Notes: generated by a model from the letters alone, not told the origin. DNA of 64,000 nt from Chloroflexia bacterium (GCA_050998805.1 JBPCPV010000009.1:6699-70698); one strand, 5' to 3'; shown: positions 1,531 through 63,529, counted from the first letter of the stretch. Numbers and translations: made by a program.

Positions 1531-1546
1531 AGCAAAGCGCGTGCCA
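1531..1546 (-). promoter_or_regulatory. sigma54 (-24/-12) promoter upstream of the L,D-transpeptidase
   Basis: Minus strand TGGCACGCGCTTTGCT matches TGGCACG-N4-TTGCW with exact GG-N10-GC spacing. Confidence 0.7.
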
Positions 1547-33109: not shown

Positions 33110-36100
33110 CTAAGGGGTTGGGAACGGCACGGGCAAAGGCGTCAACAAGGGCGCGGGAATAGCCGTGGGCAGCTCGCCCCCAAGATAAGTCGCCCGCTCA
33201 AAGGTACTGAGGTCACGGTAAGCCCGTGATGCGGCTAACCGCATGAGGTCGGCGGTAGCCGCCACATACTGCCGTGCCGTGCCGTCGTAGCTTGCCGTGA
33301 CGATGCGGTGCCCGTCCGCGCTCCACGCGGCGGTCTTGACGAACTTCGTGTGTCCGGCCAGCCTGAAGAGGAGTTGCCCGCTCGTTGCGTCCCAGACCTT
33401 TGCGGTGCCGTCCGTACAAGCCGCAACAATCAACGCACCGTCGGGGCTGTAGGCGGCGTCCCACACACCCACGCTATCCTGCAAAACGCGAAGGTACTGC
33501 CCGCTTCCCGCATCCCAGATCGCCGTGCTGTCGCCTGTCCCCGCCCCTGCCACGTACCGCCCATCCGGACTCCAACTCACGGTCTCGAACGCAGACAAGA
33601 GCGAGGTCTGCAATGTACGCAACTCCCGTCCCGTGGCCGCGTCCCAGATCTTGACCGAGCCGGATAGACCGGCTGTAGCGATAAGGTGCCCGTCGGGGCT
33701 GTAGGCTGCGCCGAAGATCGCGTCTTTGTCGCAGCAGAGCGTGAGCAGCTTCTGTCCGCTCGATACGTCCCATACCCTTGCGTTACCGTCGGCGCTGCCG
33801 GCGACGAGGAAGCGGCCGTCGGGGCTATACGCCACGCTGAACACAGCAAAGCTCTTCGCGGCGGCGTCGTTGTGGATACTGAAGCTCTGTAGCTGCCGTC
33901 CAGTCGCCGCATCCCATATTCGGGCGGTCTCGTCCTCCCCGGCGGTGGCGATGGAACGACCATCCGGACTCCAGGCGACGCTGTGTACGAAGCCGTTGTG
34001 CGCCTTGATCGTAAGCACGCCGTTGCCGCTGGCTGCATCCCATATTCGGGCGGTGCCGTCCTGACCGGCTGTGGCGATAAACCGGCCGTCGGGGCTGTAC
34101 GCGGCGGCATTTACGATGTCGGTGTGCCCGAGGAGCGTCGGCAATTCGCTGCCGCTTACCGCATCCCAGACCATGACCGGCTTGCTGGCGGTAAGCAAGA
34201 AGCGTCCGTCGGGGCTGTAGGCAATGCCGATGCCTGTGTACTCCTGGCTCAGGACACGCAGCTCCTGCCCATTAGAGGCATCCCAGATCGCCGTTCCAAC
34301 CGTGCCGATGGCCGCGATAAGACGACTGTTCGGGCTGAACGTTACATCAAACACAGGCTGGTCATCCGAATAGCGCAGAGTGTACAGTTCTTTTCCGGTG
34401 GCTGCGTCCCAGACTTTGGCCGTGCCGTCGTCGCTCGCGGTGGCGATACGGAGGCTGTCGGGACTATAAGTTGCTTTGTGCAGCGACTTGTTGTGGCCGT
34501 CCAACGTGCGGACTGCCTGCCCGGTTGCGGCATCCCATATCTCGGCGTTGCCCTTATCGTCGCCTGTGATCAGGAAGCGGCTGTCGGGGCTGTAGGCCAC
34601 GCTGACGGCCGCGGTGCCCAGCGTGCCCAGGATGTGAAGCTGTTGGCCGCTTGCCGTATCCCACATCTCGGCTGTGCCGTCGCTCTCGGCTGTAGCGATG
34701 AACCGGCCGTCGGGGCTGTAAGCAACGCCGTTCACGAAATTCGCCCCAACCGCGAGGCTATGCAATACCTGCCCGCTAGACACATCCCACAAGGTGGCAG
34801 TGCCGTCGGTCGCACTCGTGGCGATAAATCGTCCGTCGTGGCTCCAAACAGCGTCGGTGATCCGTGTCGAGTTGCCGATAAGGGCGCGCACCAACTGCCC
34901 GGTGCCGGCGTCCCATATCCTGGCCGCCCCGCCACCTTGTCCGGTCACGATAAAACGCCCATCGGGGCTATACTCTGCGCTGTTCACCTCCGTGCTGCTT
35001 TGGTCTCTCAGAACCAAGAGCGGCAGCGGCTGCCCGAGGGCTTGATGCAGCGCATCCACAGCCTGGGGGACAGGCGGTCGGCCCACCTGTAGCGTCGTAG
35101 AGATTGCCTGCATAGCCAGCAGTAGGCTTAACTCGGGATCTCTCGCCCCCTGCGCCACAGAGCCTGCGGCGAGGGCCTGCGCCTTGCTGATCAGCAGCTG
35201 GCGCTCGGTGTCGGCCTGGGCGGTGGCGCGGGCCGCCGCCTCCTGTTGAGCCGCATTACGCTGGCCGTTCGCCTCGACCACGGCGGTGGCGCGGGCGTCC
35301 GACTCCTGCTGCGCGCGCCCCTGTTGAACGAAGGCGAAGACCGCCGCGCTCACCGCCACCAACAGGAACAGGCCCGCCAGCACAAGCAGGCCGCGCAACA
35401 CCCGCGCCCGCCGCGCGGCCTCATCGGCCCTGCGCTTCTGCTCCTCCAACGCGCGCTGTTGTTCGGCCTCCTGCTTTGCGACGCTTCTCCTGAGCAGTTC
35501 CCGCGCGTCCGCATCGCGCAGAGCAATGTCCGAGCGCCTGTCGAGGGCGCGCGCCTCGGCGAGCCGCACGCCCGACAGCAGGTATTCATCCCCCATGTTG
35601 TTGCTCTGCCACTCGCGCACGGCCTGCTCGAAGCGCACCCGCTGCTGTAGCTCGTTGCGCTTCTCCTCGATCACCGCCTGGAGGCGGTCCCAGTTGCGGA
35701 TCAGCGTCTCGTGGATGATATCCACCATCTCCTGCTGCTTCTCAACTCCGGCCTCGGTACGCGCTTCCAGAGACACGCTCAACAGACGTGCGTCGGCAAG
35801 CTCGTCGATCAGCCTCGCCCGGTTCGGGTCGCCGGCAGCCAATTCGAGCTTCGTGCGCTGCCGCCTCACGTCGCGTCGGGTATCGTCGTCGAGCGACACG
35901 TCCACCAGGTCGAGCAAGATGGACATGATCGCGGCCTGTTCAGCCGGAGTGCGGGGTTGTTGCCGTGCGCCCGCATAGTCGGCGTAAGCGTACACCGTCT
36001 CGGCTTGGCGCGCCGTAACGGCGGCAGTGTATGCGTAGACCGCCTCTGCGCGTTCTTTGATGGCGTCGGTGAGCGTGCCGTAGCGGTCCAGGGTGAGGCT

Positions 36101-37942
36101 GCCGCCCGCCCATATCTCCTCCAAAGTTACCTGCAAGAGCGGCAGGTAGGCTGCGTCGGCAGAGGCGTCGCGCGCCAGCTTGTCCACCAGGGCCGGTTCC
36201 CAACGCTTGTCTCCGGTGGGATGTGCTGCCTGTAGCGGGCGTTGGATCGCCTCTTTGAGTTCGTCCGCCGTCATGGCCCGCAGGTCGGTGCCCCTCTTGG
36301 CTATGTCGTAGAGGCCACGGACCTCGAAGAGATCCGCCAGGTAGTCCGAGCGCATCGTCGCCAGCACGCAGGTACGTACCTCGGCGAAGGGGGCGATGCC
36401 CATGAGTATGGCGAAGATGGCTTCGCGCTCTTCGGGATCGGACTGGCTAAAGAGTTCCTCAAACTGGTCGATCACCAGCAGGTTCACCTGTTGAGCCGGA
36501 GTTGTATCGTGAAGGAAGCCGTTGAAGGCAGCCGGACCGCCTATCCCCGCCTGAGGGTCGCCGAGAAGCCTCTGCGCCGGCAGGCCGAGCTGCATCAGGG
36601 CATCGGCGAGAGCCGCGAGCGGTCGGCGCGACGGTCGGAAGACCGCGTGGCGCGCCCCGAGGCCGCGCTGCGCGTAATATGCTTCAAGGGCAGGCAGAAG
36701 ACCCGCCTGCGCGAACGACGACTTGCCGCTGCCGCTCGCGCCCGTTATGAAGAGGAGGGATTGTTGAGCGCCCGGCGTAGTCAGGAAGCGCACGGTCGCC
36801 GCGACGGTGGATGCGCGTCCCGCATAGCTGTCGCGGTCAGCGTAGGTGAAGCTGCACAGGCCGAGGTAGGGGTTCGGTAAGCCGCTTACCCTATACGCTT
36901 GCTCGTCGTAAACCTGGGTGACATGAGCGCCGGGTCCGATGGTGACAAGCGGTCGTTCGCGCACGTCGGCGCTTAACTGCTCCAGTCCGCCCCGCACATC
37001 TTTGACGCCTATGCTGATCTCCGCGACGCTGCCTTTGATCTCCTGGGTGTTCCGTAGCGTCTCCTCGGTCAGGGCCTTTATCTCGTCGAGCCGCTTGCGT
37101 ACAGGCGCAAGCGCGGCGTCGAGCGCGGCCTCTCCGGTGGGGTCGCGCTGCGCGACGGGCGTGGCGTCCAGGCGTTGCGCCCATTGCTTCAACCAGCGCA
37201 GGGTTTCGACGGTCTCAGCGCCGCCCTGCCCCGACTGCTCGACGCTATCCAGCAGGCTCTCTTGCCAGAGCTTTTGGTAGGCGCGCCATGCGCGGTTGCC
37301 CTCTGGGTTGTCTGCCTTCAACGCCTCGCCGAAACGCAGCAGCCACTCATCGGGCAGGTGCGCCTCCACGAAGCCTACGAACTCCTCGTCATAGCCGTAG
37401 AGGTAGCTCTTAATGGCCTCCAAGAGCATCTGTCTGGCTTCTGCTTCGGTATCCGGGCGCACAGGCACCCACTCATCGCTCTGGATGGCGGTTCCGAGCT
37501 GTTCGCTACTCGCCAAGAAGCCCGCAGCGCCATGGCGCAGGCCGTGTAGGGTCTCCAGAGTTCGCGCGGCCTCTTCGGGGTCGCGGGATCTCAGCTTGAG
37601 GTAGGCAGGATCCTTCTGCCAGACAGCCTCCAGCGCGCCGGCTGCGGCTGCAAAAGCCTGCGAGAGCAGAGGCGCGATGTCGCCGCTGAACGCGGTCCCG
37701 CCCTCACGGCTAAACCAGCGCCCGCACCAATGGTCAATTGCCCGCTGCGACAGCCCTGTGACGGCTCCGACGCCCATACCGGCGAGCAGGGCGGTCAGCG
37801 GTCCCGCGCCGGTAATCAGGCCGATAGCCTGCAAGCCGGTCGTGACGATGGCCTCGATAGGTATGGATCTTATACCCTCGTTGAGGCTCTCCTGGCTGAT
37901 GCTCCTAAGAAGCTCGCGGCGCAGCTTGGGGTCGTGAGACAC
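33110..37942 (-). CDS. nSTAND1-type STAND NTPase with unknown N-terminal domain, TM helix and WD40 propellers
   Basis: PNPYLGLCSF, GASGSGKSS, LLVIDQFEELF, LPLLQVTL, HETLIRNW; about 14 SPDG..WD repeats; GAGGAGG RBS before GTG 37942. Confidence 0.9.
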   Translation of the reverse strand: MSHDPKLRRELLRSISQESLNEGIRSIPIEAIVTTGLQAIGLITGAGPLTALLAGMGVGAVTGLSQRAIDHWCGRWFSREGGTAFSGDIAPLLSQAFAAAAGALEAVWQKDPAYLKLRSRDPEEAARTLETLHGLRHGAAGFLASSEQLGTAIQSDEWVPVRPDTEAEARQMLLEAIKSYLYGYDEEFVGFVEAHLPDEWLLRFGEALKADNPEGNRAWRAYQKLWQESLLDSVEQSGQGGAETVETLRWLKQWAQRLDATPVAQRDPTGEAALDAALAPVRKRLDEIKALTEETLRNTQEIKGSVAEISIGVKDVRGGLEQLSADVRERPLVTIGPGAHVTQVYDEQAYRVSGLPNPYLGLCSFTYADRDSYAGRASTVAATVRFLTTPGAQQSLLFITGASGSGKSSFAQAGLLPALEAYYAQRGLGARHAVFRPSRRPLAALADALMQLGLPAQRLLGDPQAGIGGPAAFNGFLHDTTPAQQVNLLVIDQFEELFSQSDPEEREAIFAILMGIAPFAEVRTCVLATMRSDYLADLFEVRGLYDIAKRGTDLRAMTADELKEAIQRPLQAAHPTGDKRWEPALVDKLARDASADAAYLPLLQVTLEEIWAGGSLTLDRYGTLTDAIKERAEAVYAYTAAVTARQAETVYAYADYAGARQQPRTPAEQAAIMSILLDLVDVSLDDDTRRDVRRQRTKLELAAGDPNRARLIDELADARLLSVSLEARTEAGVEKQQEMVDIIHETLIRNWDRLQAVIEEKRNELQQRVRFEQAVREWQSNNMGDEYLLSGVRLAEARALDRRSDIALRDADARELLRRSVAKQEAEQQRALEEQKRRADEAARRARVLRGLLVLAGLFLLVAVSAAVFAFVQQGRAQQESDARATAVVEANGQRNAAQQEAAARATAQADTERQLLISKAQALAAGSVAQGARDPELSLLLAMQAISTTLQVGRPPVPQAVDALHQALGQPLPLLVLRDQSSTEVNSAEYSPDGRFIVTGQGGGAARIWDAGTGQLVRALIGNSTRITDAVWSHDGRFIATSATDGTATLWDVSSGQVLHSLAVGANFVNGVAYSPDGRFIATAESDGTAEMWDTASGQQLHILGTLGTAAVSVAYSPDSRFLITGDDKGNAEIWDAATGQAVRTLDGHNKSLHKATYSPDSLRIATASDDGTAKVWDAATGKELYTLRYSDDQPVFDVTFSPNSRLIAAIGTVGTAIWDASNGQELRVLSQEYTGIGIAYSPDGRFLLTASKPVMVWDAVSGSELPTLLGHTDIVNAAAYSPDGRFIATAGQDGTARIWDAASGNGVLTIKAHNGFVHSVAWSPDGRSIATAGEDETARIWDAATGRQLQSFSIHNDAAAKSFAVFSVAYSPDGRFLVAGSADGNARVWDVSSGQKLLTLCCDKDAIFGAAYSPDGHLIATAGLSGSVKIWDAATGRELRTLQTSLLSAFETVSWSPDGRYVAGAGTGDSTAIWDAGSGQYLRVLQDSVGVWDAAYSPDGALIVAACTDGTAKVWDATSGQLLFRLAGHTKFVKTAAWSADGHRIVTASYDGTARQYVAATADLMRLAASRAYRDLSTFERATYLGGELPTAIPAPLLTPLPVPFPTP

Positions 37943-38054
37943 GTCGTGATCCTCCTCTTCACCTGTGGTATAATACACCCAGCAAGCCTGTCGTGCAAAC
38001 GCCGGAAGCGCCTGGGCACCTACCCCTATTAGATGGGAGCTTGAAGGAGATAGA

Positions 38055-38534
38055 ATGACCTCGGGAGAGCGCGCTCAAAAGATAGAGACCCATGGCAACG
38101 CCTACAACGAACTTGTGGAAGCCCTAAGAGATTTCCCCAAAGAGATGTGGCACTACAAAGCGTCGCCGGACGATTGGAGCGTGCATGAGATAGTAGTTCA
38201 CATCACCGATAGCGAGGCGAACAGCTACATAAGGTGCAGGCGGCTCATCGCCGAGGCGGGCGAGGCGGTTATGGCGTATGACGAGATGGAGTGGGCCAAA
38301 GCTCTGCATTACTCCGAGCAGAGCACCGAGGACGCGCTGGAGCTATTCAAGTGGCTGCGCCTCACTACCAACAAGCTGGTAAGGACGCTACCAGAGCGAG
38401 CATGGTCCAACAAGGTATACCACCCCGAAAACGGCACTATGACGCTCGATGATTGGCTGGATGTGTATGCGAGACATGTAAGCGAGCATGTAGAGCAGAT
38501 GCGTGCAGGCTACAAGGCATGGTGTGAAGAGTAG
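38055..38534 (+). CDS. DinB family protein
   Basis: WSVHEIVVHITDSE, HPENG, HVSEHVEQ. Confidence 0.9.
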   Translation: MTSGERAQKIETHGNAYNELVEALRDFPKEMWHYKASPDDWSVHEIVVHITDSEANSYIRCRRLIAEAGEAVMAYDEMEWAKALHYSEQSTEDALELFKWLRLTTNKLVRTLPERAWSNKVYHPENGTMTLDDWLDVYARHVSEHVEQMRAGYKAWCEE

Positions 38535-38539
38535 GGCAC

Positions 38540-38637
38540 AAAAAAGGGACGCGACGGGCGGTAATCGTGGTGCAACGTATGCTGTGACGATTCGGGATAG
38601 TCGCGTCCCTTCAAGGCCGGGGAGTAAACCCCGACAG
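38540..38637 (-). ncRNA. Putative sigma54-dependent small RNA (~100 nt, two stem-loops, U-tract terminator)
   Basis: Exact sigma54 promoter upstream, no convincing ORF; hairpin GTCGGGG-TTTACT-CCCCGGC, then long stem GGGACGCGAC..GTCGCGTCCC followed by T6. Confidence 0.6.
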
Positions 38638-38647
38638 ATTTGCTTAA

Positions 38648-38664
38648 AGCAAGCCGCGTGCCAA
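38648..38664 (-). promoter_or_regulatory. sigma54 (-24/-12) promoter
   Basis: TTGGCACGCGGCTTGCT is a perfect match to YTGGCACG-N4-TTGCW. Confidence 0.75.
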
Positions 38665-38669
38665 CCCCG

Positions 38670-40403
38670 TCAGAGGTAGCGCAGCACTAGCTTGATGCCG
38701 GGGATACGCATCCCGGCGAAGCGTTCCTTGTCTTCGGGGAGAAGCCCGCCGAGCCGTCGGAACGCCAGCCAGAAAAGCAACATGCCCAGCCCGATCAGCC
38801 CGACATCGGCTCCCACCAGCAGGAACCAGGGACCGCTGAAACGGTTGCGTGCCGGGTCAATCGGCAGCAGGGCCGCCGCCGGCCCGACGAGCAGGGCCAT
38901 CGGCAGCGTGGCGAGGGCGACCTTGCCGAGGAAGCCGGTCGGGAAGCTGAGGCCGAGCCTCCCCAGCCCGAACGCCAGCGCCACGAGCCGTGAGCCCAGC
39001 GTCGCCGTCGCCACCGCGAGCGCGACCCCGACCACCCCGAAACGCGGCTCGAGCAACAGCATCAGTGGGATGCTCACCAAAGTCACGCTCCGGGCCAGCA
39101 GCACGATGCGGTGCTTCTCGTAGACAAGAAGCACCTGCAAGGCGACGCCGATCAGACTCTCGCCGAACAGCCCGACCGCCAGGATCGCGCAGGCCGTCAC
39201 AGCCTCCGGCAGCCGCGCCTCGGTCAGCACGGCGTCGCGCCCGAATTGCAGATAGAGCAGCACCAGCACGTTATGCACAAGCAGGATCGTGCCCACTCCG
39301 GCCGGCACCAGTACTAGGATCAGGAACCGCGTCACGCTCGCGTAGGCCGTCCGCAGCCCATCGATCCGGTTCTGCGCGTAGAGCCGGGCGAACAGCGACG
39401 CCTGCACTCCCGTGAGCGGCACCACGAGCGCCTGCAAGACCTGCCGCACAAGCTGGAAGGCGAGCGTGATCAGCGCCACCTCCTGCCGCTCGCGGGAGCT
39501 GTCGGCCACCAGCACGCTCAACAGCGGCACCACGAACGGCTGGTCCACCAGTGCGGTTGAGAGGTTGATCATATACATGATCGCCGAATACGCCGTGAAC
39601 CGCCGCCAGACCGTGCGCTCCGACGGGCGGAGGGCCGGATCGGCACCCGGCCTCGGCGTCGCCCGCAGCCCCATGCGCTCCTCCGCAAGCGCGTGGAACA
39701 TCAGGCACACCGAAATCGCCACCGAGATGACCGTGCCGATCAGCAGTGCGAGCAGCGCGCCGAAGACGCTGAACAGCCCCACCAGCAGCGCGCGCAGGCC
39801 CGGGATCAGCAGCGCGTTCAGCACGTCGAGGGCGTTGGTCATCTTCTGCCGGAAGTAGGCGTAGAGTACCTGCACCGACACATCCGACGCCGCGCCGAGC
39901 ACCAGCATCAGCGCGACGATGCCGAGCAGCACCGGCACCGGGTTCGCGCCGAGCAACCCGCCCGACAGCTGTCTTTGGTCAGCCGCGCTTAGGTTGAGCA
40001 GGCCGCTGAAAAAGCCGGGGAAGGCGAGCAGCGCCAGCACGAAGGGGAGTATCGTCAGCGCCTTGATCACCACGACGCGGCGCAGCAGCAGGTTGAGTCC
40101 GGCCCGCCCGCCCTCCATCTCGAACTCCGGGATGAAGCGGGGCAGCGCCCGCTCCACGCCGAGGTCGGAGAAGATGCCAAGCAGCGCGAGCAGCGCGCTC
40201 AACTGCGCCAGCACGGTATAGGTATCTATCTTGAGCACGCGGACCACGACGACCGACGCGACCAGCCGCGCCGCCAGCTTGAGCGGCAGGAAGACCGCGT
40301 TCCAGAACGCGCCGAGCGATGCCCGTTCGCCGAGCGCGCCGCCGTGCTTCGAGTCGGGCGCAGGCGGTTCGGGGGGCGGCAGGACGGCCGGTTCGTTGTC
40401 CAC
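38670..40403 (-). CDS. Oligosaccharide flippase-like MOP exporter family protein
   Basis: About 14 TM; SDLGVERALPRFI motif; last gene of the glycan operon. Confidence 0.8.
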   Translation of the reverse strand: MDNEPAVLPPPEPPAPDSKHGGALGERASLGAFWNAVFLPLKLAARLVASVVVVRVLKIDTYTVLAQLSALLALLGIFSDLGVERALPRFIPEFEMEGGRAGLNLLLRRVVVIKALTILPFVLALLAFPGFFSGLLNLSAADQRQLSGGLLGANPVPVLLGIVALMLVLGAASDVSVQVLYAYFRQKMTNALDVLNALLIPGLRALLVGLFSVFGALLALLIGTVISVAISVCLMFHALAEERMGLRATPRPGADPALRPSERTVWRRFTAYSAIMYMINLSTALVDQPFVVPLLSVLVADSSRERQEVALITLAFQLVRQVLQALVVPLTGVQASLFARLYAQNRIDGLRTAYASVTRFLILVLVPAGVGTILLVHNVLVLLYLQFGRDAVLTEARLPEAVTACAILAVGLFGESLIGVALQVLLVYEKHRIVLLARSVTLVSIPLMLLLEPRFGVVGVALAVATATLGSRLVALAFGLGRLGLSFPTGFLGKVALATLPMALLVGPAAALLPIDPARNRFSGPWFLLVGADVGLIGLGMLLFWLAFRRLGGLLPEDKERFAGMRIPGIKLVLRYL

Positions 40404-43393
40404 TAGCGGGCGGGGTCCAGCCGCATTTCGTCAAGTGCGACGCCGAGTACACGCTCGTCCCCGCTCACCTCTGCGGCGGACGGCACCCAGGTGCTCGACG
40501 TGATATGCAGCAGCAGGTAGTGCGGATCCGCCGGGTCGGTCGGCGCGTTCGCCGGCACGCCCATCGTCACGTCCTGGAAGCCCGCACCCGGCTGGAGCGT
40601 CACCTGCGTCAGGGTGAGCACGCTGTTCGCCGAGATCGCCACCTGCGCCGGAGAGGGCAGCATCTTTGCTCCGCTCGGCGCGAGTACGAGGCGGGCCGTT
40701 TGCTCAGGAGTCGGGTGCGCCGGAGCGGGCACGCGGCGCTCCTTCGTCCCCGCGCTCAGGCTCATCGTCAGTGTCGCGCCGCCGGCCTTCGCCGAGTCCG
40801 GCCAGGGCAGCCGCAGGTATGCATCGTGGAAGGTCCACCTCCACTGCGCGGTGTCGGGGTCGGCGGGTGCGGTCTTCTCCTTGCCGCCGAAGCCCGCGAC
40901 GAGGTTCTGGTAGTCCAGTCCGCCGATGTCGAGGCGGTACGGCAAGCTCGGCAGGGTCGTCTGGGTGCGCGAGACTATGTCGTAGAGGCCGAACGGCAGG
41001 CTCGCCGAGATGATGTTCTTCGGCTTCTGGAAGCGCAGTTGCTCTAGCTCCGGCACCTGGTACGTCCACTCCGGCGTGCCGGTCTGGGTGTAGGGCACGA
41101 GCGCGAGGTCCGGCATGAAGAGCTTGCCGCCGTTCGCGCCGAGCAGCGCGTAGACGTGGTAGCCCTGCTTCTGCCAGCGTTCGACCGCGCCCTGCACCAC
41201 GCTGCCCTTCGTGTCGCCGTATGGCCGGTTCAGCGAAAAGCAGTTGAAGCCGTAGATATATTGGAGCGGCGTCGCCACGACATACGGCTCGTCGCGCTCG
41301 TTGCTGAACAGCAGCACCGTCTTTGCGGGGTTGCCGGGGAAGCGATGAGCCAGCGCGGTGAGTTCGTCCACCGCGCCCGCCTCCTCGGTGTGGCCGATGA
41401 TCACCCAGCCGGTCACCAGGAAGAAGACGACCAGCGCCGCCGCCGCAGCCCAGGCCAGGGGACGGACTAGGCGGCGAGGGTGCCACTTTTCTCCCGCCCA
41501 GGCGAGCGCGTAGGCGCCCAGCACAAGCAGCCCCGGTATCGCCACCGGCAGGAAGCGCCGCAGGCTGTAGGGATAGGTCGGCACGGTGTAAGTCTCGCCG
41601 CTGAAGAGCAGGCCGACGACGCCAAAGACCGCGAAGAAGTAGGCCGTGCCCGGGTTGAGCCGCTTCCAGAGCGCGCGCAGCAGCCCGACGAAGCCGAGGA
41701 GCATCCCGAGCGGCGAGAGATACCAGCCGAGCCGCACCAGGATAGCGCTGTTCGTGTTGATCAGCCCCGGCTGGTTGCTTTTGCCCGTCTGCGCGATAGA
41801 TTCGAGCGGCGCGCCGATGTACGGCTCGAGATAGCGTGCGAAGGCGACCGGCCCCTGCTTCAAGGCGTCGAACGCCTCCGACGAAAACAGGATGTGCGGC
41901 TGCCAGATGTAGCGGTATGCCAGGAAGGCCCCGACCGCCAGGCAGAGCGCGCCGAGCAGAGGCTTCCGCCGACGCGACGCCGCCTCCCCGGCTGCGGTCG
42001 CCAACGGTCGCCAACGGTCCCGCGTTCTGTCGAGCAGCAGCAGCACACCGACCGCGAGATATGCCAGAGGCAGCAAGAACGGCCAGTTGCGCCTCTGGTC
42101 GAGCAGCACGTTGTGGTACTGGTCCATCGTGTAGGCAAAGCTGAAAAACACGAAGTGCAGCGTCCACTGCGCGAGCAGCAGGCCGACCGTGACCGCGAAC
42201 CAGGTATGCTCGCGCCGCCATGTGCGCCCCAGCCACCACCAGAGCATGAAGAAGGGCAGCGGCAGCAGGTAGAGCGGGAAGTCCACACGCACCAGGCTGA
42301 TCTCGCCGAGCGCGGCCCCCGCCAATACCGCGAAGAGCCGCGCGTTCCTGACGGACGCGCCCGATTCCAACGCCGCGCTCCCCGCCGGGCCGCCCTCGCG
42401 CCGGGCCGCGGCCTCTAGGCTGTTCAGCCGCCGCGTCTCCTCGGTGAAGCGCAGGAAGGCGTAGAAGAACAGGAAGGCGAGCATCTCGGTCGGCAACTCG
42501 GACACCGGATAGCGGGCGAACCAGATCTGTAGCGGGCACACGACCAGGAAGGCGAGCGCGACCAGGCCGACGCGGGCCGAAAACATCTGCCGCGCGAAGA
42601 AGAAGACCGCCGCGCACGTCAGCAGCGCGAGCAGAGGCGTGATCCAGAGCGCGCCCCAAATCCCGAATAGCCCGTAGCCGACCGCGATCAGCGCCGGGTA
42701 GAAGCTGTAGTGCTGCGGCAGGACTAGACCCGACTTCTTGTCGAGCACATAGAACGCCGGCATACGCAGCCGGTCGAGGCTGTAGCGCTCGAGGTTAAGC
42801 GGCTCCAGGAACTCCTTCGCCTCCTCCAGCGTCACATAGGCCGGCGGGGGGCCGAGATCCCGCAGGTCGCGCATCAGCGGATCGCGTTGCACAATCGCCC
42901 CGCTTCGCGCGATGGCGATCCCGTGGTTGATGTACGCGCCGGCGTCGAGCGCGCCGCGCAGCATCTCGGCGGGCCGCCCGAAGAGCGCAGCCCCGACCAG
43001 CAGCAGCCCGACCAGCACCGCCGTTTCGAGCCGCAGGTTGCGCGCGTCCTGCCGGATGCGGACGCTCCGCCCGCTCGCGATCCGCACGCCGTCAGCCAGG
43101 CTCCGCCCGAGGTCGTCGAGCCAGAGCCGCGCGGTCGCCGGCACGCCCCGCCAGTCGCCGGCGACCACCCGCAAAACCACCGCGCAGCCCGCCAGAACGA
43201 GCAGCACGATCAGCCAGACGGAAAACCAGCCGATCTCGGCCAGCGTGAAGCCGAGCCAGCCGGTCAGCAGCACGCTGATCGCCACGGCGAGGAAGTTCCA
43301 TGCAGGGCCGTCGGTGCGGCGCGGCCCCTCGGTGCCGAAGACCGCCCGCAGCGCGACAGCCCCCGGCAGCCAGAACAGAACCGGCATCGCCAA
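40403..43393 (-). CDS. Large GT-C fold membrane glycosyltransferase with C-terminal extracellular domain
   Basis: DAGAYIN loop, QIWFARYPVSE, RRFLPV, WRWT and DERVLGV motifs; the true start may be ATC 43426. Confidence 0.8.
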   Translation of the reverse strand: MAMPVLFWLPGAVALRAVFGTEGPRRTDGPAWNFLAVAISVLLTGWLGFTLAEIGWFSVWLIVLLVLAGCAVVLRVVAGDWRGVPATARLWLDDLGRSLADGVRIASGRSVRIRQDARNLRLETAVLVGLLLVGAALFGRPAEMLRGALDAGAYINHGIAIARSGAIVQRDPLMRDLRDLGPPPAYVTLEEAKEFLEPLNLERYSLDRLRMPAFYVLDKKSGLVLPQHYSFYPALIAVGYGLFGIWGALWITPLLALLTCAAVFFFARQMFSARVGLVALAFLVVCPLQIWFARYPVSELPTEMLAFLFFYAFLRFTEETRRLNSLEAAARREGGPAGSAALESGASVRNARLFAVLAGAALGEISLVRVDFPLYLLPLPFFMLWWWLGRTWRREHTWFAVTVGLLLAQWTLHFVFFSFAYTMDQYHNVLLDQRRNWPFLLPLAYLAVGVLLLLDRTRDRWRPLATAAGEAASRRRKPLLGALCLAVGAFLAYRYIWQPHILFSSEAFDALKQGPVAFARYLEPYIGAPLESIAQTGKSNQPGLINTNSAILVRLGWYLSPLGMLLGFVGLLRALWKRLNPGTAYFFAVFGVVGLLFSGETYTVPTYPYSLRRFLPVAIPGLLVLGAYALAWAGEKWHPRRLVRPLAWAAAAALVVFFLVTGWVIIGHTEEAGAVDELTALAHRFPGNPAKTVLLFSNERDEPYVVATPLQYIYGFNCFSLNRPYGDTKGSVVQGAVERWQKQGYHVYALLGANGGKLFMPDLALVPYTQTGTPEWTYQVPELEQLRFQKPKNIISASLPFGLYDIVSRTQTTLPSLPYRLDIGGLDYQNLVAGFGGKEKTAPADPDTAQWRWTFHDAYLRLPWPDSAKAGGATLTMSLSAGTKERRVPAPAHPTPEQTARLVLAPSGAKMLPSPAQVAISANSVLTLTQVTLQPGAGFQDVTMGVPANAPTDPADPHYLLLHITSSTWVPSAAEVSGDERVLGVALDEMRLDPAR

Positions 43394-59174: not shown

Positions 59175-59199
59175 TCATACTCCCCAGTTTCGTGTGCAA

Positions 59200-63514: not shown

Positions 63515-63529
63515 TGGCACCGATTTTGC
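63515..63529 (+). promoter_or_regulatory. Putative sigma54 promoter
   Basis: TGGCACCGATTTTGC has GG-N10-GC spacing; predicted +1 about 63541, ATG at 63544. Confidence 0.5.

Follow-up and report, generated by a model that had tools for sequence, protein, structure and literature searches.

A genus-restricted RNA gene behind a sigma-54-type promoter in a Chloroflexia bacterium: a putative small regulatory RNA and its rival readings

What is encoded in the short gap between two converging genes of a Chloroflexia bacterium, where a sigma-54-type promoter is followed by two hairpins and a run of T, is the question raised by the locus described here. The window analysed is the whole stretch of 64,000 nucleotides from this organism (GCA_050998805.1, JBPCPV010000009.1:6699-70698; C31:6699-70698 in the contig names used below), and its genome (G000) comprises 3.83 Mb in 56 contigs and is 91% complete. 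The sequence-only reading had proposed an orphan sigma-54 promoter driving a structured small RNA of about 100 nt, and the elements that it named (box, hairpins, T6 tract and the gene convergent with them) all lie where it had placed them, with the unit on the minus strand. The features are given below, with the basis of the assignment in brackets.

38670..40403, minus strand: upstream gene for a 577-aa protein (no family match)
38672-38670, minus strand: TGA stop codon of the upstream gene (sequence)
38648..38664, minus strand: sigma-54 -24/-12 promoter TTGGCACG-CGGC-TTGCT (sequence, spacer statistics, invariant hexamers)
38664-38657, 38656-38653 and 38652-38648, minus strand: promoter parts TTGGCACG, CGGC and TTGCT
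38662-38661 and 38650-38649, minus strand: promoter dinucleotides GG and GC
~38637, minus strand: predicted transcription start, +1 (12 nt after the C, 38649, of the -12 GC)
38540..38637, minus strand: predicted RNA, about 98 nt (fold and homologue lengths)
38616..38635, minus strand: hairpin 1, 7 bp, at the extreme 5' end of the RNA (fold, helix 1 pair counts)
38635-38629, 38628-38623 and 38622-38616, minus strand: hairpin 1 segments GTCGGGG, loop TTTACT and CCCCGGC
38543..38612, minus strand: long hairpin, 70 nt, doubling as terminator stem (fold, helix 2 pair counts)
38540..38545, minus strand: U tract (T6), intrinsic terminator (sequence; at least four T in all six genomes)
38055..38534, plus strand: DinB_2 / YfiT-like gene, convergent, context outside the RNA unit (PF12867, 9e-14)

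The box at 38664-38648, whose full form is TTGGCACGCGGCTTGCT, matches every specified position of the sigma-54 -24/-12 consensus, and the distance between its GG and GC dinucleotides within TGGCAC-N5-TTGC(W) is exactly 10 nt. When the C of the -12 GC at 38649 is taken as -12, in line with the established geometry of sigma-54 promoters, transcription would start at about 38637. Folded from this position, the RNA has a minimum free energy of -45.4 kcal/mol, compared with -26.7 +/- 2.95 for 200 shuffled sequences, none of which was as good (z -6.3). Hairpin 1 and the long hairpin are separated in this fold by a linker of 3 unpaired bases, and the long hairpin is composed of a 13-bp outer stem, a 7x7 C-rich internal loop, an inner stem AATCGT/ACGATT and a small variable apex with CGUUGCA. 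The unit occupies the 135-nt gap between the converging genes; the promoter box stands 5 nt past the upstream stop codon, the T6 tract is 5 nt from the stop of the DinB-family gene, and the only terminator in the gap after the upstream gene is that of the RNA itself. Because the upstream stop sits 5 nt before the promoter box, the mRNA of the 577-aa protein probably shares the terminator of the RNA. The sequencing datasets found to carry the locus (38000-39400) are three of DNA type from one study, with identical contigs and no variants, and none is recorded as RNA.

The upstream gene had been labelled a flippase, a name that finds no backing, as the 577-aa protein matches no Pfam or NCBIfam family even at E 0.1. 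Related proteins occur in 39/40 genomes of the order, and a crude count gives the 577-aa protein about five hydrophobic 19-mers; its gene abuts that of a 996-aa protein (40403-43393, minus strand) with a weak PMT_2 / STT3-like match. Beyond the DinB gene, window positions 33110-37978 (minus strand) encode a protein of 1622 aa that combines an nSTAND1 NTPase domain with many WD40 repeats.

It could be asked whether the unit is a small protein gene, for instance the 34-codon TTG ORF at 38614-38510. An open frame of 34 codons is indeed present; among ORFs of at least 12 codons, just one frame has its start within the RNA, at either of two in-phase TTG codons (giving 34 or 21 aa); neither TTG is preceded by a Shine-Dalgarno (SD) sequence, and the frame reads through the terminator. 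No ORF is common to the six homologues described below or preceded by an SD, the G003 homologue is without any ORF of at least 12 codons, and the stem substitutions are compensatory rather than codon-like. The earlier statement that no convincing ORF is present is borne out, and a coding function is scarcely credible.

Sigma-54 has been recorded in 'some Chloroflexi' in a passage of a survey (PMC3162934), and the search for rpoN that the sequence-only reading had suggested gave two complete genes in G000, each with AID, CBD and DBD domains, plus one NtrC-type activator; at least two rpoN copies are found in 9/9 genomes of the family. The activator, encoded at C42:107370-108827, is a REC-AAA+ (Sigma54_activat)-HTH_8 protein scoring 251.6 bits, the other four PF00158 matches in G000 scoring 24-31 bits; its gene is adjoined by that of a HAMP-HisKA-HATPase kinase and lies on a different contig from the RNA gene. 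The core TGGCAC-N5-TTGC occurs at 29 sites in the 3.83-Mb genome, 17 of them outside crude gene calls (long ORFs with GC3 bias that cover 87% of the genome and miss some genes, including the DinB gene at this locus), while for the same hexamers set at eleven control spacers (0-4 and 6-11) the counts per spacer run from 1 to 11 (mean 5.7) and, for intergenic sites alone, from 0 to 5 (mean 1.1). Because 17 intergenic sites stand against 1.1 for the control spacers, an intergenic N5 site in G000 is very likely a real promoter. The form of the promoter with 13 specified bases has two matches genome-wide, one being the box of the RNA; the identical 17-mer is also found at C28:74770-74786 (minus strand), 56 nt before a TTG-start ORF of 429 aa. 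An SD-preceded ORF of at least 25 codons lies within 260 nt downstream of 23 of the 29 sites, and the six without one are two in-gene sites, C31:70213, C38:3895, C22:8446 and the site of the RNA.

Several of these boxes have features of their own. C22:8446-8460 (plus strand) is a second intergenic core box without an SD-preceded ORF within 260 nt; the box at C31:70213 (window 63515-63529, plus strand) stands 15 nt before an 847-aa crude-call ORF for which no SD was found, and that at window 1532-1546 (minus strand) precedes by 113 nt a YkuD/SH3 L,D-transpeptidase gene, whose SD is good. At C34:9944-9958 (plus strand), a TGGCAC-N5-TTGC box lies 84 nt before the GTG start of the second rpoN gene (C34:9854-11464 by longest ORF), which suggests that one rpoN copy may be expressed in a sigma-54-dependent manner. 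The box at C38:3895-3909 (plus strand) is followed, about 40-100 nt on, by an SD-preceded ORF that reads MATDNAKSAPVVVYSTDT, then an in-frame TGA, then PWC..., after which the frame continues; by eye, it resembles a glutaredoxin-type protein, and because the TGA stands at the position of the first Cys of the CxxC motif, a selenoprotein under sigma-54 control is possible. On C7, about 50-85 nt after the box at 72755-72769 (plus strand), some five tandem 7-base units (GCTGACG/GCTGACC) sit in the leader between the sigma-54 box and a YflT/glycine-zipper gene.

Homologues of the unit were sought with covariance models. The first model, R1, was built from the single G000 sequence with promoter and RNA and was run on 40 genomes of the order; full-length matches were obtained in G002 (55.8 bits), G003 (51.6 bits), G001 (44.3 bits) and G006 (40.8 bits), so that the whole unit is found in 4 of the 6 congeners, with a divergent copy in a fifth (G004), while the remaining matches score at most 22 bits and the element proved absent on inspection. 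A second model, R2, built from five sequences and run on 151 genomes of the class, added only the divergent G004 copy, which keeps the promoter, hairpin 1, CGUUGCAGCC and AUCGUCGCACGUCG and has a remodelled long hairpin; G005, which is 73% complete, gave no match to the RNA models. Family members score 40-56 bits with R1 and 97-131 bits with R2, and promoter-only matches about 20 bits; no promoter-less copy was found by R2 in the 151 genomes, a result to be read with the search model including the promoter and its matches hence being biased toward having one. Weak covariance-model matches (L045-L050, L051-L053 and L059) were rejected as homologues, being the promoter alone or generic hairpins; among them, L053 is a sigma-54 box before an apparent small cysteine-rich ORF. 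The elements are 61-84% identical in pairwise comparison, with 84% for G001 versus G006, and a blastn search of the 201-nt region against 60 related genomes matched nothing beyond a 30-nt stretch in G001, at the end of the upstream gene.

In addition, a pattern scan of a genome contig collection gave 37 loci, of which three strong ones and the weak G004 copy are identical to elements from the model searches; in metagenome contigs, the scan gave more than 120 stretches, and among the 80 scored, one was strong and identical to G002. More family members may exist in metagenomes. Rfam 15 gave no match on the element in the window at E up to 10 and, at the six homologous loci, only sub-threshold chance matches at E up to 1; the gathering threshold of any Rfam 15 family, including Qrr, GlmY/GlmZ, 6C and Chloroflexi-1, was not reached.

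As regards conservation, the hexamer TGGCAC and TTGCTTTA are invariant in the five strong members while the 5-nt spacer between them varies, and each homologue taken alone folds into the two-hairpin shape (z -3.2 to -5.6). In each of the six genomes, the first base of hairpin 1 lies 13-15 nt beyond TTGC, which puts this hairpin at the 5' extremity of the transcript as predicted; the long hairpin is followed by at least four T in 6/6 genomes, its terminator stem being of 12-14 bp, GC-rich and followed by U5-7. Measured from +1 through the last U of the run, the predicted RNAs of five species are 95-102 nt long and that of G004 is 118 nt long. The sequence-only reading had raised the prospect that relatives might retain the terminator hairpin and lose the promoter and hairpin 1; what was found is that promoter, both hairpins and U tract are conserved together.

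The two conserved helices comprise 20 pairs, in which 96% of cells are paired and 11 pairs are changed on both sides, none of 500 column shuffles reaching as high, where it should be noted that these counts rest on alignments fitted to the model and on five or six sequences of one genus, of which G001 and G006 are close (84%). Controls with slid partners gave 1-2 pairs changed on both sides. In helix 1, both sides have changed in 4 of the 7 pairs and 88.6% of cells are paired; in helix 2, both sides have changed in 7 of the 13 pairs and 100% are paired; without G006, a genome flagged as unpublished, 10 pairs remain changed on both sides with 97.5% paired and again 0/500 shuffles as high. RNAalifold, applied to an independent MAFFT alignment, assigned compensatory changes to 9 of 25 pairs. 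Variation within the long hairpin is greatest in its interior, the invariant unpaired motifs in five species being the CCC of the 3' internal loop and the C.U.GC of the apex, and the longest unpaired stretch is 7 nt.

The unit is found in three different neighbourhoods across the six genomes. In G000, it follows the 577-aa protein gene and is convergent with DinB; in G002, it follows an MGH1-like glycoside hydrolase gene, with the promoter box again 5 nt after the upstream stop and the RNA's terminator the only one in the gap, and is convergent with an OmpR-type regulator gene about 25 nt past the U tract. In G001, G003, G004 and G006, the unit is divergent from a DUF3417 alpha-glucan phosphorylase gene and a co-oriented gene follows it: an aldo-keto reductase gene starting 33 nt after the U tract with a good SD in G001 and G006, and a cyanophycin synthetase (cphA) gene starting about 174 nt (G003) and about 125 nt (G004) after it. 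The phosphorylase and cphA genes of G000 are on other contigs, without an RNA copy beside them. In G004 (L055, 1776-1883 onward in oriented coordinates), the cyanophycin-synthetase-like gene meets a stop after 36 codons and resumes in a different frame, through either a frameshift or an assembly error. The RNA was found downstream of none of 29 loci with relatives of the 577-aa protein (one at a contig edge); what follows that gene differs among the relatives and is unrelated to the RNA unit, one of them (L032) having an unrelated sigma-54 box 208 nt downstream.

These neighbourhoods bear on the proposal that the box is a chance sigma-54-like motif between two terminators, hairpin 1 terminating the DinB gene on the plus strand and the long hairpin the upstream gene. 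Hairpin 1 read on the plus strand is followed by AGATTTGCTT, the G000 unit fills the gap between converging genes, and chance alone would yield about 5.7 core matches per genome. Against this, the unit recurs in G001, G003, G004 and G006 outside any gap between converging genes, the hexamers are invariant while the spacer varies, and intergenic N5 sites are enriched over control spacings as given above; since the upstream gene is divergent and the downstream gene co-oriented in four genomes, the comparison of genomes contradicts this explanation, and it is considered very improbable.

A more substantial alternative is that of a cis-acting leader, in which the box would be the promoter of the downstream gene and the hairpins its 5' leader, with a terminator that attenuates or gates read-through, the G000 and G002 copies being displaced remnants or giving antisense read-through onto the convergent gene. 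The co-oriented gene that follows in 4/6 genomes, its closeness in G001 and G006, and its position in G003 and G004 all favour this, and a simple scan of G001 and G003 found no sigma-70-like promoter on the same strand between RNA and downstream gene; because a close co-oriented gene stands there without such a promoter, read-through may express it. However, the units of G000 and G002, which lack a co-oriented downstream gene, are intact and show compensatory differences from each other, yet their next gene is convergent; the downstream genes of the other genomes differ (cphA, aldo-keto reductase); the 12-14-bp GC-rich stem with U5-7 looks constitutive; neither the folds (MFE and centroid) nor the alignment showed an alternative pairing or a conserved aptamer-like core; and the interior of the long hairpin is the part that varies most. 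A leader is regarded as unlikely, though the unit may have such a role in the four genomes where a co-oriented gene follows. Accordingly, 'stand-alone', the term used in the sequence-only reading, is apt for G000 and G002 and does not describe G001, G003, G004 and G006, where a co-oriented gene comes after the terminator.

How the RNA would act was approached through its possible targets and partners. The sequence-only reading had seen an anti-SD segment in the RNA that could pair with the pfkB ribosome-binding site; the pairing at 59178-59187 does exist, but as a target the site ranks only 97th among 2841 start regions, and the best matches for the anti-SD segment in these regions are no better than those of shuffled segments. 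The anti-SD loop of hairpin 1 is also not conserved, reading UUUACU, UAUCC, UUUAU, AGC and CCGG in different species. When four accessible segments were scanned against the 2841 start regions, none rose above shuffled controls, and for rpoN, the activator and the kinase no notable pairing was seen between the RNA and the start region of the gene.

Another alternative is that the RNA is indeed made from the sigma-54 promoter but has a mode of action without base pairing, such as binding a protein or serving as a decoy. Its unpaired stretches are short (7 nt at most), no target stands above background, and the conserved features are mainly structural, with two short motifs in the long hairpin. 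On the other side, the G000 genome, which is 91% complete, yielded no gene for Hfq or CsrA, the RNA was not seen to carry a GGA loop or any other motif known to bind proteins, and no candidate partner emerged; this mode of action is held to be rather improbable.

The genes behind the other sigma-54 boxes give an indication of the regulon to which the RNA may belong. They encode YflT-domain, CsbD-like, DUF2382, PRC-barrel, DUF2383 and DUF1206 proteins, and in addition VIT1, TatA, L,D-transpeptidase, LOG-family, CoA-binding and other proteins (contigs C2, C4, C7, C11, C24, C40, C49 and others; loci L224-L242), with one strong enhancer-binding protein in G000 for the whole set. By analogy, this set resembles general-stress regulons, from which the likely inducing condition can be guessed. 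As for the binding site of the activator, a crude search in G000 found no dyad enriched upstream of 56 relaxed sigma-54 sites, and a similar search found no positionally conserved 9-mer common to the upstream regions of the six RNA genes.

A different unit of about 88 nt, with a sigma-54 box, a hairpin, a terminator and no ORF, was observed in two genomes of a sister genus (G007 and G008; L057:1448-1580 and L058:1448-1580, both minus strand). It follows a gene whose neighbour reads like PurE by translation and converges on another gene. Identity between the two copies is 92%, with compensatory changes in the terminator stem. A model of this RNA, R3, matched 2/2 genomes of that genus and 0/38 others of the order. 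The sister-genus RNA and the window RNA have in common the promoter-proximal TTGCTTTA..AAATCT and the core AUCGU-N10-GUUGCAC; the genes flanking the sister-genus RNA share nothing with the contexts described here except one weak tblastn match (30% identity over 126 aa between a cphA query and L244), which lies away from the element.

Considering the evidence as a whole, what is directly established is the anatomy, the sigma-54 machinery, the motif enrichment, the co-conservation in different neighbourhoods and the absence of an ORF. The proposal of an orphan sigma-54 promoter driving a structured non-coding RNA of about 100 nt gains support at the sequence level from rpoN, the activator and the co-conserved unit, and judged on these data, the locus is a real, genus-restricted sigma-54 RNA gene and represents a new RNA family, whose product is most likely a trans-acting sRNA of a stress-like regulon. 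The full reading, namely a self-contained gene for a ~98-nt non-coding RNA, driven by sigma-54 and an NtrC-type regulator and acting in trans without Hfq within a stress-like regulon, is given a probability of roughly 0.6.

Under this preferred reading, in which transcription, the identity of the activator, trans action, the base-pairing mode and the stress link are inferred, sigma-54 RNA polymerase would bind the -24/-12 box at 38664-38648, and the NtrC-type response regulator, phosphorylated by the neighbouring kinase, would open the promoter; this regulator is the only strong match to a sigma-54 activator domain in the genome. Transcription would start near 38637 and end at the long hairpin and U tract (38612-38540). 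The 5'-terminal GC hairpin is probably protective, and the best-conserved unpaired parts are the C-rich internal loop and CGUUGCA apex of the long hairpin. The RNA would be a small regulator working in trans and independently of Hfq, and would belong to a sigma-54 regulon resembling the general stress response in this organism.

A wider proposition can be put forward tentatively, and as a joint claim it is doubtful: that across the family, sigma-54 and a single NtrC-type system run a general-stress-type regulon (YflT, CsbD, DUF2382, PRC-barrel, DUF2383) with an Hfq-independent sRNA arm, that each genus has one such RNA gene, which shifts relative to its neighbours, and that the core AUCGU-N10-GUUGCAC is the functional seed. 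If true, Chloroflexota, a phylum for which a limited literature search found no regulatory sRNA described, sigma-54-dependent or other, would gain a first regulatory sRNA and a first defined sigma-54 stress circuit. The locus is in any case a well-delimited RNA gene with covariation support, tied by its promoter to one two-component system and stress-type genes, and for a phylum that has been little studied and is mostly uncultured it offers a concrete entry to post-transcriptional regulation and to the biology of sigma-54.

Among known systems, the Qrr RNAs of Vibrio are sRNAs of about 100 nt with a sigma-54 promoter, the NtrC-type regulator LuxO, several hairpins, an intrinsic terminator and no ORF. 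The RNA described here is like them in its length of ~98 nt, its sigma-54 box, the REC-AAA+-HTH regulator in the genome, its hairpins, its terminator and the absence of an ORF; it differs in having neither sequence nor Rfam similarity to Qrr nor a long conserved single-stranded seed, and further in that no Hfq gene was found, the phylum is another and the activator is encoded away from the RNA gene. In the MicL type, sRNAs have their own stress-sigma promoter and share the terminator of the upstream gene, to which G000 and G002 correspond, with the box 5 nt past the upstream stop and the RNA's terminator the sole one in the gap; the four other genomes differ, and because they have no co-oriented upstream gene, a 3'-UTR position is not a trait of the family. 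GlmY acts by protein sequestration within a defined glmS circuit. The sRNA genes GlmY/GlmZ of Enterobacteriaceae, with sigma-54 promoters and a two-component activator, resemble the present gene in these respects, a passage of the survey mentioned above describing glmY expression as sigma-54 dependent (PMC3162934); in contrast, there is no Rfam match here, and nothing comparable to the glmS circuit is shown. Orphan sigma-54 promoters driving non-coding RNAs have been predicted by comparative genomics, and the sigma-54 regulome of Desulfovibrio vulgaris Hildenborough includes 4 non-coding RNAs of unassigned function (Kazakov et al. 2015, PMC4641369). Several of those RNAs adjoin their activator gene and have mapped activator sites, whereas here the activator is on another contig and no activator site was found. 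The Chloroflexia RNA is a member of none of the sequence families of Qrr, GlmY or the Desulfovibrio RNAs. No new principle is involved, since Proteobacteria are already known to have sRNAs driven by sigma-54, and such RNAs have been predicted in Desulfovibrio, and it is to these systems that the Chloroflexia RNA gene most readily compares.
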